Assembly (NCBI GenBank): GCA_910589155.1
Contig: CAJURY010000004.1
Coordinates: 29,157 to 93,156 of the forward strand
Length of the DNA stretch: 64,000 nucleotides
DNA from: an uncultured Oscillospiraceae bacterium
GTDB taxonomy: Bacteria; Bacillota; Clostridia; Oscillospirales; Oscillospiraceae
Reading direction: 5' to 3'
Shown: piece after piece, positions 8,346-55,893 of the stretch
How the letters are laid out: the number at the start of each line of letters is the position of its first letter
Numbering within the stretch: position 1 is the stretch's first letter
Translations under genes and position numbers: made by a program
Notes under the pieces: model-generated
Told to the model about the DNA's origin: nothing
Seen by the model: only the letters and a program-made list of their open reading frames with translations
Database searches by the model: none

Positions 8346-8449
8346 ATGCGTACATTTCCGCAGAGCATTGTAGGGCGCGGACATATCCGCGCTGGGTACT
8401 TGCAAATTTAGGATGCACATCAATTCTTGGTAAAGACCTTTTCAACACC

Positions 8450-22982: not shown

Positions 22983-24932
<1,950 letters not shown>

Positions 24933-24958
24933 TTGTTTTAAGCATGAAATGCAGTGAA

Positions 24959-24990
24959 CTGTAGGGCGGGGTCATGACCCCGCCGGGCAC
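24959..24990. repeat. Left flanking REP-like hairpin of the RayT remnant
   Basis: CTGTAGGGCGGGGTCATGACCCCGCCGGGCAC. GTAG is followed by the GGCGGGGTCATGACCCCGCC palindrome. Confidence 0.8.
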
Positions 24991-25026
24991 TGATTCATGC
25001 AGCATCCATCGCTTTTTTATTTATAT

Positions 25027-25330
25027 GAAAGATGAGTTTGAGCGCCTGTTCTATCCCAAAAGAAAAAATCCCCGGCTGAAAAATGGATTGTTATGCCAAG
25101 TCACATTCATATGATTCTTGTACTGCAAGAACAAGCTGCTCCTTTGCCTGCTTTAGTCGGTCAATATAAATCCTATGTTACAAGAAAAATTCATGAAATG
25201 TATCCCATTTTGAATGTTTGGCAAAGGCATTTCATGAGCATGTAATACGAAATCAGGCAGGTTATGAAAAAAATTTGGAATTACATTGATGAAAATCCCA
25301 TGAAGTGGAGGACGATTGCTTTTTCATTAG
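25027..25330 (+). pseudogene. Frameshifted, N-terminally truncated IS200/IS605-type HUH (Y1) transposase, RayT-like
   Basis: One frame gives WIVMPSHIHMILVLQEQAAPLPALVGQYKSYVTRKIHEMYPILNVWQR (HUH = HIH at 25102-25110). Other frames give FHEHVIRNQAGYEK and KIWNYIDENPMKW (catalytic-Tyr motif YIxxNP). At least three frame changes, AT-rich. Not in the ORF track. Confidence 0.7.
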
Positions 25331-25425
25331 GGAATAGCGTTATAAATGCAGAAATGCTGTCAATATAAAATGAAAGGCAAAGTTATTTTGCAGAAGCGTA
25401 TTTGCCATCATAATTGAATTTTTAA

Positions 25426-25457
25426 CTGCCCGGCGGAGTCATGACTTCGCCCTACAG
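25426..25457. repeat. Right flanking REP-like hairpin (inverted copy of 24959-24990)
   Basis: CTGCCCGGCGGAGTCATGACTTCGCCCTACAG is the reverse complement of the left repeat with 3 substitutions. Two of them sit at paired stem positions but do not restore pairing. Confidence 0.8.
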
Positions 25458-25567
25458 CGCGTCATGATAGCTGCACCTGAATTTTATAGCATAAAAATGT
25501 AACGTGTATACAAGCGTATGATTGCAGGATCTCAGGAGAGCGGCACCACAAAAAGGAGGCGTTTTTA

Positions 25568-28087
25568 TTGGCGCAGCACAAAAAAGACTACAAGCCGGAG
25601 GACATTATGTACCCCGATCAGTCCATTGTGACCTCCGAGCTTGTCCATGAAATGAAAAACAGCTACATCGAGTACGCCATGTCCGTTATTGTCGGCCGTG
25701 CGCTGCCCGACGTGCGGGACGGCCTGAAGCCGGTACACCGGCGGATCTTGTACGCGATGTATGAGGATAATCTTACTTCCGACCGCCCCTTCCGCAAGTC
25801 CGCCACCTGCGTGGGCGACGTTTTGGGTCGGTATCATCCCCATGGCGACGGTTCCGTATACGACGCCCTGGTGCGCTTGGCGCAGGATTTTTCCATGCGC
25901 TATATGCTGGTGGATGGTCACGGCAACTTCGGTTCCGTAGACGGCGACCCCCCGGCGGCTTACCGTTATACGGAAGCCAGAATGTCCAAAATTTCCAATG
26001 AAATGCTCCGGGACATTGAAAAGGATACGGTAAACTGGGATCCCAACTTTGACGAGACCCGGAAAGAGCCGCGGGTTTTGCCCAGCCGCTTCCCCAATCT
26101 GTTGGTAAACGGTTCTTCCGGCATCGCCGTGGGTATGGCCACCAACATCCCGCCCCACAATTTAACGGAGGTCATCAACGCCTGTATCTGCGTGCTGGAC
26201 GACCCGGAAGCGACCCTGGCCGACCTCATGGAGCACGTCACAGGCCCTGATTTTCCCACCAAGGGCATCATTTTGGGCAGAGCGGGTATCCGCGCCGCCT
26301 ACGCCACGGGCAAAGGCCGCTTAACCCTTCGGGCAAGGACGCATTTTGAAGAATTTGGCCAAAACCGCACGAGAATTATTGTGACGGAAATCCCCTATCA
26401 GGTCAACAAGCGGATGCTCATCAAAAATATGGCCGATCAGGTGAACGATAAGCGTCTGGACGGCATTTCCGACATTCGGGACGAATCCGACCGGAACGGT
26501 ATGCGCATTGTCATTGAGCTAAAAAGGGAAGCCAACGCCCAGGTGGTTTTAAACCGGCTGTTTGCTCAGACCCAACTGCAAACGACCTTCGCCATCAATA
26601 TGCTGGCGCTGGTGAAAAATCAGTCTCAGCCCAAGGTTTTATCCCTACGGGAAATTCTGGACGAATATCTGGCCTTCCAGGAGGAGGTCATCATCCGGCG
26701 CACCCGGTTCGACCTGAAAAAAGCCCAGGATCGCGCCCATTTGCTGGAGGGTCTGCTCATTGCCCAGGACAATATCGATGAAGTGATTCGGATTATCCGT
26801 ACCTCCTATGATAACGCCAAGGATAATCTGATGGAAAAGTTCGGACTTTCCGACGTGCAGGCTCAGGCAATTTTGGATATGCAGCTCAAGCGTCTGCAAG
26901 GTCTGGAACGGGACAAGCTTCTGGCCGAGTACAAGGAGCTGGAAGAGCGGATCGCCTACTACCAGCAGGTTTTGGGAGACATTAATCTGGTAAAATCCAT
27001 TTTGAAGGATGAGCTGATCGCCATCCGGGACAAGTTTGGCGACGGCCGCCTGACGGAAATCCAGGATGTGGAGGACGAAATCGATATTGAGGATCTCATC
27101 GAGGAGGAGGACTGCTGCTTTACCCTGTCCAACTGCGGTTACATGAAGCGGATGCCCGTGGACACCTACCGCACCCAGGGCAGAGGCGGCCGGGGCGTCA
27201 ACGCCCAGAACCTCAAGGATGAGGATTTTGTCAAGAATATTACCATAGCGTCCACCCACGACCATATGCTGTTTTTCACCGATTTGGGACGGGTACACCA
27301 CCGCAAGGGCTATCAGATTCCCGAAGCCGGGCGCACCGCCAGAGGCACGGCCATTGTCAACGTGCTGCCCTTGGAGCCGGGAGAAGCCGTTACCGCCATG
27401 GTTGTGACCCATGATTTCCATGAGGACGAATATTTGGTCATGGTGACAAGAAACGGAACGGTGAAGCGCATCGCCTTTACAACCATCGCCACCAACCGAA
27501 AAACCGGGATACGGGCGCTGACATTGGAGGAGGACGACCACCTGATTTCTGTGATGCGCACCAACGGCAACGACAATATCGTGATTGCCACCGCCGGGGG
27601 GATGGCGATTTGCTTCAACGAGCAGGATGTGCGACCCATGGGGCGGGAGGCCGCCGGCGTACGGGGCATTTCCCTCAGCGACGGAGACTATGTCATCGGC
27701 GCGGAAAAGGCGGAGGAGGGCAAGACCTTGCTCACCGTCACGGAAAACGGCTACGGCAAGCGCACGGAGCTTTCCGAGTATCTGCGCCTTGGGCCAAACG
27801 GCGAGCGAATCGCCCAGGGTCGCGGCGGCAAGGGTCTCAAAAACTATAATATTACGGCGAAAACCGGCAATGTGGCCGGCTGCCGTGTGGTAGATGAAAC
27901 CGACGATGTAATTCTCATCGAGTCCGGCGGCGTGATTATCCGCATTCCTGCTGCCAGCATCAACGTGTACAAGCGGGACACCCAAGGCGTTATCGTCATG
28001 CGGGTGGAGGAAGGCAACCGGGTCATCGGCGTGGAGCGCATCACCCCGGAAGTGGAAAGTGAAGAACAGGCCGAAGAAGGCGTCTAA
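25568..28087 (+). CDS. gyrA: DNA gyrase subunit A
   Basis: TTG start 8 nt after AGGAGG. ...[30 protein letters not shown]...[17 protein letters not shown]... Confidence 0.98.
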
Positions 28088-46447: not shown

Positions 46448-46488
46448 GCATGTAGGGCGGCATTTGGATGCCGCCCTACATGCTTTTT
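46448..46488 (+). terminator. spoVT terminator built on a GTAGGGCGGC-type stem
   Basis: GCATGTAGGGCGGCAT-TTGG-ATGCCGCCCTACATGC followed by TTTTT. Confidence 0.8.
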
Positions 46489-55843: not shown

Positions 55844-55893
55844 GTTAAAACGCTGTAGGACAGCGGTTTGCCTCTGTCCTACAGCGTTTTAAC
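55844..55893. repeat. Perfect 20-bp inverted repeat
   Basis: GTTAAAACGCTGTAGGACAG-N10-CTGTCCTACAGCGTTTTAAC, between the secA upstream region and the 3' end of the AlkZ-like gene. It contains a GTAG. Confidence 0.75.

Follow-up and report, generated by a model that had tools for sequence, protein, structure and literature searches.

The remnant between gyrB and gyrA

In an uncultured Oscillospiraceae bacterium (assembly GCA_910589155.1, contig CAJURY010000004.1), the gyrase genes gyrB and gyrA are separated by a 635-nt spacer. What does this spacer contain, how long has it been there, and could it still be active? The questions were addressed in a stretch of 64,000 nucleotides of the contig (positions 29,157 to 93,156), which is called the window and is numbered from its own first letter. 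The spacer very probably holds a pseudogene of a RayT-type HUH/Y1 transposase (25025-25337), bracketed by its own two inverted GTAG hairpins, which are copies of a repetitive extragenic palindromic (REP) element. A decayed RayT-like transposase at this place had been proposed from the nucleotide letters before any database was searched (hereafter the original prediction).

All peptide pieces quoted in that prediction were found by three-frame translation, and the remnant could be assembled from them (Table 1). In the model check that had been suggested, Pfam Y1_Tnp (PF01797) gave 24.5 bits for the longest single-frame piece (25078..25227) and 28.3 bits for the pieced protein (cut-off 23). The NCBIfam model REP_Tyr_transpos (NF047646) gave 67 bits (cut-off 80), against 19.8 bits for the IS200 model (NF033573, cut-off 55). 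A database search returned 21 relatives, the intact ones being about 150 aa long and 50-62% identical. The intact orthologs themselves, 54-62% identical, reached 78.4-84.2 bits with REP_Tyr_transpos, falling on either side of its cut-off of 80, and no more than 28 bits with the IS200 model.

When the family profile was compared with PDB, Escherichia coli TnpA_REP (4ER8) came first with E = 7.8e-10, above the IS200-type transposases. In the profile alignment with 4ER8, the Tyr and Asn codons of the remnant (25282-25284 and 25294-25296), like the Tyr and Asn of the family motif W-x-Y-I-x-x-N-P, aligned with Y115 and N119. Y115 is the catalytic tyrosine of E. coli TnpA_REP, and a role of N119 has also been described (PMC3479197). 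At the other end, YPKRKNPRLK aligned by tblastn to residues 6-15 of relative P0002 (YPQRKHPRLK), and the N-terminal piece was 90% identical to residues 1-20 of P0020, the protein of the sister lineage L098. The assignment to a decayed RayT-type HUH/Y1 transposase was therefore retained from the original prediction, with Y1_Tnp above its cut-off, REP_Tyr_transpos well ahead of IS200 and 4ER8 as the best structure. No second RayT was detected in the window by tblastn with all RayT homologs, which leaves one copy there.

Flanking hairpins as the REPs of the enzyme

The two arms (24959-24989 and 25427-25457) formed a 31-nt inverted repeat with 28/31 positions (90%) complementary and 437 nt between them. 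Each arm contains a palindrome (GGCGGGGTCA/TGACCCCGCC), the hairpin type being GGCGGGGTCATGACCCCGCC, and the likeness of the arms to one another runs past the stem (CTGTAGGG...GGGCA). Folded as single-stranded DNA, the left arm gave -10.5 kcal/mol (z -3.1), and the right arm, which carries three substitutions, gave only -6.0 kcal/mol (z -0.5). One of the changes in the right arm was compensatory, from G-C to A-T. The 24-mer of the arm (up to 3 mismatches) matched only the two arm sites in the 64 kb, with 0.00 expected from shuffles. The left arm was identical in the window, L001 and L098 and near-identical in L100 and L227.

The genomic context was examined for eleven homologs and for L018, a GTDB locus of this group, and 15 distinct ortholog loci were compared. 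A GTAGGG-led hairpin was present upstream on the plus strand and downstream on the minus strand in all 15, with the GTAG ends outward as in the window. The stems vary by lineage (GGCGGGG.., GGGAGGG.., GGGGCCGG..) yet stay paired. Among 17 distinct hairpins, stem positions 3, 4, 5, 6, 8 and 9 changed on both sides and 149/153 cells were Watson-Crick (positions 1-9), the pairs being counted by script inward from the stem ends; a MAFFT alignment placed the difference in length at the 3' end and was unusable. The REPtron arrangement, known from the literature (PMC3733652) and foreseen for this spacer with cognate inverted GTAG hairpins, could thus be observed at 15/15 loci with covarying stems. 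Base-specific binding of GTAG has been described in E. coli, where cleavage needs this tetranucleotide (PMC3479197).

Mismatches in stem positions 1-7 occurred only in the right arm of the window and the right arm of L098, which are the two lineages with a dead RayT, although the numbers are small. This fits a loss of constraint, and the distribution of the mismatches suggests that the constraint came from the enzyme. In the wider family, sampled as 80 GTDB loci from many phyla, a strict detector found GTAG hairpins within 450 nt in 60 of 97 loci. In ortholog locus L012/L013 the flanking REP type recurs as doublets between recF and gyrB.

Some further hairpins were observed. The right arms of L100/L101 (GGCGGAGTCATGACTCCGCC), which belong to slot C of Table 1, differ from their own left arms in the G-C to A-T pair that is also changed in the right arm of the window. 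The left/right asymmetry could be old and have moved between slots with the whole unit, or the transitions could have coincided by chance. Other GTAG-led hairpins with different stems are found in the window at 46452-46479, 55855-55882 and 8370-8392. Two of them are perfect GTAGG...CCTAC palindromes, giving a GTAG hairpin on either strand (GTAGGGCGGCATTTGGATGCCGCCCTAC and GTAGGACAGCGGTTTGCCTCTGTCCTAC), and GTAGGGCGCGGACATATCCGCGC occurs once.

Inactivation of the gene

The lesions were defined relative to L098, in which MKNEFERLFYPKRKNPRLK is followed directly by DYDYTNYNYYFVTICT...VYAEKWIVMPNHVH (P0020). A 160-nt deletion in the window takes about 53 codons (DYDY...YYFVTICT...VYA), which correspond to about residues 20-72 of the intact proteins and include the nearly invariant YF.T.C block. 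DNA alignment revealed further lesions, namely a 1-nt deletion near 25226-25228, an extra A in 25267-25273 and a 1-nt deletion after 25308. The four frame switches of the pseudogene are accounted for by the 160-nt deletion and these three 1-nt indels, and no intact frame is left; the H-I-H and Tyr codons remain, but in frames that are no longer joined. Compared with L098, leader and tail have deletions of 30-78 nt as well. The original prediction was right that residues are missing, while its placing of the loss in the N-terminal ~40 aa did not hold, for the first 19 codons remain and align to the N-termini of homologs, and the loss is internal.

Judged by its sequence, the copy is a pseudogene of the RayT family and not a working member. 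Programmed frameshifting and a truncated active protein were considered and ruled out, as about 53 residues are lost with the deletion, among them the invariant YF.T.C block. Two contigs, L001 and L002, come from near-identical strains (GyrB 99.5-100% identical); both share the pseudogene and its lesions, with one A more in an A-run.

In L098 a full-length RayT (144-617) was identified, whose only visible defect is TGA (498-500) in place of the invariant Trp codon (TGG) of VWQ. The TGA was observed in two runs, whose accessions suggest a single project. On the aligned sequences this TGA appears as a lesion independent of those in the window, and L098 holds either an independent pseudogene or else a variant. 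Differences between the window and L098 fell at codon positions 1:2:3 in the proportion 17:8:29, so most of the divergence would have built up under purifying selection, and both deaths would be recent relative to the split of the lineages. The right flank in L098 has a 38-nt extra segment duplicating GCCCTACA.

With the enzyme gone, the hairpins and the AT-rich spacer might have been kept to tune gyrB/gyrA expression or local supercoiling, which is unlikely. Such a use would agree with the perfect conservation of the left hairpin in the window, L001 and L098, with the compensatory change in the right arm, and with the conservation against L098 of the stretch downstream of the right arm and of the gyrA ribosome-binding region. 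The right arm has nevertheless become less stable, deletions have removed parts of leader and tail, and conservation of the left arm over so short a divergence needs no selection.

Age of the gyrB-gyrA occupancy

Orthologs were found in several genomic slots (slots A to D, Table 1), and RayT is co-oriented with the housekeeping neighbours in every ortholog context. The slot-A copies group together in a neighbour-joining tree, and those of slots B and C mostly do so. The original prediction spoke of an insertion between gyrB and gyrA; the location is correct, while a local event is not what the relatives indicate. Since L003, L012 and L016 hold intact orthologs in the same slot, the occupancy is probably old and only the decay recent. 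The simplest history would be that the whole REP-RayT-REP unit moved a few times long ago and was then inherited vertically, with the window copy derived from an old slot-A resident. Among 80 more distant family loci, tblastn of GyrB and GyrA revealed gyrase adjacency only in L056, next to gyrA, so only the close ortholog group shows the gyrase association, not the family as a whole.

A recent, lineage-specific insertion of an IS200/IS605-like element into this spacer, followed by decay, would account for the low G+C content of the unit, 15-20 points under its surroundings and often a sign of foreign DNA, and the unit has indeed moved at times, being present in at least four slots among the orthologs. 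The RayT genes, however, had 30-51% GC against 52-61% in the flanks at ten of ten intact or near-intact ortholog loci (L003, L005, L008, L012, L016, L018, L098, L100, L102 and L104). Low GC in every lineage and slot is thus a family trait and not a mark of recent arrival. Together with the intact orthologs in the same slot of three other lineages (GyrB 81-88% identical), the clustering of the slot-A copies, the IS200 score of 19.8 against 55, the lack of tnpB and the ends formed by inverted identical GTAG hairpins, this makes a recent insertion very unlikely.

Several points speak against the reading of an old REPtron resident that has died. The remnant by itself stays under the NCBIfam REP_Tyr_transpos cut-off (67 vs 80). 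The arm hairpin type has no third copy in the 64-kb window at up to 3 mismatches, so that a dispersed REP family belonging to the dead RayT was not seen in the 64 kb. Moreover, the tree is a crude neighbour-joining one on about 150 columns, and with orthologs in at least four slots, strict vertical descent at one site is not the whole story.

Other genes were also observed in the gyrB-gyrA spacer of relatives. In L226 (5437-5998), a slot-B relative, the spacer holds a gene for a 103-aa DUF559 protein (Vsr-like endonuclease domain), bracketed by its own inverted repeats of about 45 nt (CCCTTCCCCCGGGGGGAAGGTGGCC...). In L016 (2119-3000), a gene for a 293-aa alpha/beta-hydrolase precedes RayT. 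Such cargo points to the gyrB-gyrA spacer as a tolerant landing place.

Locus organization and transcription signals

From the open reading frame (ORF) list, the distance from the gyrB stop (24932) to the gyrA start (25568) was 635 nt, the same length as given in the original prediction. The GC content was 34-38% for the remnant and the 437 nt between the arms, and 53-62% for gyrB and gyrA. Five promoter-like matches were found in the spacer by the promoter/terminator scan, against 2.1 expected, which is not informative. The terminator scan of 24800-25700 called neither arm, and neither is followed by a T-run (tails GGGCACTGATTC and CTACAGCGCG), so the hairpins are not terminator-like. That they are generic gene-end structures unrelated to the remnant (gyrB terminators or mRNA stabilisers, or a gyrA regulator), a possibility which the original prediction had itself named for terminators, is hardly credible: the left hairpin does begin 27 nt past the gyrB stop, and E. 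coli REPs have been reported as 3'-end RNA elements and gyrase targets (PMC3733652), but besides the negative scan the GTAGGG pair accompanies RayT in four genomic contexts, the arms copy one another past the stem, and mismatches at stem positions 1-7 are limited to the two dead-RayT lineages.

Table 1. Features of the window and of related loci
Feature	Location	Strand	Remarks
N-terminal 19 codons, MKDEFERLFYPKRKNPRLK	25025..25081	+	frame 3, from ATG 25025
Junction of 160-nt internal deletion relative to L098	25078..25082		CTGAAA/CCGAAA microhomology at junction; frame shifted
Segment EKWIVMPSHIHMILV...YKSYVTRKIHEMYPILNVWQR	25078..25227	+	frame 2; HUH motif H-I-H at 25102-25110
Segment AFHEHVIRNQAGYEK	25227..25271	+	frame 1; end at 7-A run 25267-25273, one A longer than in L098
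Segment IWNYIDENPMKW (frame-2 piece KIWNYIDENPMKW)	25273..25308	+	Tyr codon 25282-25284, Asn 25294-25296
C-terminal segment EDDCFFIRE	25308..25337	+	frame 1; stop 25335-25337; matches family C-terminus WEDDCF[FY]
Left REP arm	24959..24989	+	CT-GTAG(24961-24964)-GG, 10+10 palindromic stem 24965-24984, GGGCA tail; hairpin intact
Right REP arm, inverted copy	25427..25457	-	GTAG at 25455-25452; 3 substitutions vs left arm, one A.C stem mismatch
gyrB, 644 aa	22998..24932	+	upstream neighbour, co-oriented with pseudogene; from ORF list, orthologous loci with GyrB Pfam domains, and tblastn (81-99.5% identity to their gyrB)
gyrA	25568..28087	+	downstream neighbour, co-oriented; TTG start, AGGAGG 10 nt upstream
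Slot A, gyrB-[RayT]-gyrA			window, L001, L098 dead; L003, L012, L016 intact, GyrB 81-88% identical to that of window
Slot B, gyrA-rnhA-[RayT]-remA-like			L005, L008, L102, L104, L056 (Faecousia sp.)
Slot C, prfA-[RayT]-tsaE			L018 (uncultured Oscillospiraceae), L100
Slot D, upstream of Cu-oxidase_4 gene			L227
GTAGGGGCGCACCTATGTGTGCGCCC REPs	993, 1087, 8450, 8767, 18029/18058, 22742, 28413, 42614		in window
GTAGGGGCGCACCTATGTGTGCGCCC REPs, rest	44393, 46614, 46928, 50135, 50462, 58390, 58630, 63789/63818		in window
RayT ORFs with internal REP	L169 5173-5811; L165 1547-2203; L155 172-801; L184, L204, L211, L220, L192, L213, L146

Comparison with known systems

The closest system is the REPtron/RAYT of E. 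coli and Pseudomonas (Nunvar 2010; Ton-Hoang 2012; Messing 2012, PDB 4ER8; Bertels and Rainey 2011). Both have an HUH/Y1 domain in which the HUH motif is present and a Tyr aligns with Y115; they also share the inverted GTAG-led REP hairpins, a single copy in the region examined and co-orientation with housekeeping neighbours. Unlike E. coli TnpA_REP, the window copy is a pseudogene, and the orthologs are short (~150 aa) with the C-terminus WEDDCF[FY]. The stems here are perfect palindromes without a bulge, while E. coli TnpA_REP needs a bulge in the stem (PMC3479197). Loss or decay of REPtrons has already been reported among E. coli strains (PMC3733652).

IS200/IS605 elements (TnpA_IS200) share PF01797, the HUH/Y1 chemistry on single-strand DNA and the end hairpins as recognition elements. 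They have distinct left and right ends, whereas the ends in the window are inverted copies of one GTAG hairpin; they are multicopy, whereas the orthologs are single and syntenic. No tnpB-sized ORF was present in the 635-nt spacer, and no second copy in the window. Identity as an IS200/IS605 element was rejected on the NF033573 score, the single inverted hairpin type and the missing tnpB.

The GTAG REP families of Di Nocera et al. 2013 (PMC3733652) resemble the arms in the GTAG(GG) lead and in the G+C-rich stem of 6-10 bp. As in the multi-family genomes of that study, the window has two REP types, and the dead RayT is flanked by just one of them. A difference lies in the host, here an uncultured Clostridia/Oscillospiraceae-like bacterium as judged from the nearest named loci L018 and L056; the main text of that study mentions neither Clostridia nor Firmicutes.

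The abundant second REP family

The other REP type of the window is abundant. Thirteen exact GTAGGGGCG sites were counted in the window, with 0.44 expected, and about 16 places match GTAGGGGCGCACCTATGTGTGCGCCC within six mismatches, often as parts of longer shared elements. The copies at 993/1087 form an inverted REPIN-like doublet. A module of about 130 nt is shared among 8767(-), 46614(+) and 50462(-), and another among 8450, 44393, 46928 and 50135. Copies also lie in the recF-gyrB spacer (22742) and just past gyrA (28413). A scan of the whole window against Rfam at gathering thresholds returned zero matches, so neither REP type of the window belongs to the curated RNA families.

When metagenome contigs were scanned for GTAGGGGCGMACCTRTGTGTKCGCCC, at least 120 contained it; the contig names label one of these as marine sediment. 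Among the matches listed, a RayT-like gene of another subfamily (...MPNHFHGI...QWFKTMTT...) was present on at least 15 contigs. In 10 of 15 such contigs, again among the matches listed, the RayT ORF itself contains the 26-nt REP, which is placed between MPNHFHGI and QWFKTMTT, in the loop that follows the HUH motif. The number of copies ranges from one to at least four, and in-frame translation gives VGADLCVRP for the sense orientation or GEHTGSPL/GAHTGAPL for the antisense one. The RayT gene is also flanked by REPs of the GTAGGGGCGCACCTATGTGTGCGCCC type, with slightly varied stems, in L220, L192 and L213; the RayT of L220 has an additional insertion near the N-terminus.

The dead copy had been suspected not to be the enzyme of the main REP family, and this agrees with the GTAGGGGCGCACCTATGTGTGCGCCC type flanking or sitting within another RayT subfamily. 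Genomes with several GTAG families have been reported to have family-specific REPtrons (Di Nocera et al. 2013, PMC3733652). From these sequence matches, the abundant REPs of the genome would be a separate family with its own RayT subfamily.

Proposed history and significance

By analogy with E. coli TnpA_REP, RayT in the living relatives would bind GTAG and the hairpin on single-stranded DNA, and would cleave beside the hairpin by means of the HUH-bound metal and the catalytic tyrosine, thereby mobilising REP/REPIN copies. The REP-RayT-REP unit would have occupied the gyrB-gyrA spacer since before the split from the relatives with GyrB 81-88% identical, RayT being probably expressed by read-through from the gyrase gene. 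In the window lineage the gene would then have died through the 160-nt deletion, which takes the first core strand region, and the three indels; part of the leader went, and decay of the right hairpin has begun. Presumably no protein can be made any longer, the locus would now be inactive as a transposase, and the hairpins would serve at most as passive RNA or DNA structures.

A bolder reading takes the ortholog group as a domesticated RayT in the origin-proximal gyrase cluster of Oscillospiraceae-like Clostridia (gyrB-gyrA or after gyrA-rnhA), expressed by read-through only, kept about 20 GC points low to limit expression, and tied to gyrase and replication, with the independent deaths in the window and L098 marking replacement by the second REP/RayT system. 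The tie to gyrase and replication is suggested because gyrase is known to target REPs in E. coli, and the second system would have a REP that is identical in many phyla and that also lies in frame within the RayT genes of that system. This reading is rather improbable, and the history of an old resident that has recently died is preferred.

The kind of element is ordinary and already described; here it is dead in this lineage. It is one more REPtron, met soon after the death of its transposase, in a poorly studied group of gut Clostridia. Its uses are a caution for annotation and a dated loss of RayT, in which two sister lineages carry independent lesions and hairpin decay shows its first signs, and it also points out that the abundant REPs of the genome belong to a different RayT subfamily. 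The locus would carry greater weight if the repeated placement beside gyrB/gyrA and the lasting AT-richness of the gene were functional rather than historical.

Annotation of REP-flanked RayT genes

Gene callers were observed to run RayT ORFs into the REP hairpins, as in P0001 (L001 4001-4273), P0013 (L016 3001-), P0014 and P0012 (L008 3460-3486). False starts arise at an ATG in the hairpin loop (ATGACCCCGCC, giving MTPP..., e.g. P0001 and P0014) or in ATGTATGTAGGG, and one C-terminus reads through the REP (..VGEGFYPS). These extensions of ORFs into hairpins are annotation artefacts typical of REP-flanked genes. P0001, in the pseudogene of L001, is a 90-aa ORF called from inside the hairpin (MTPPGTDS...) because of the extra A in the A-run.

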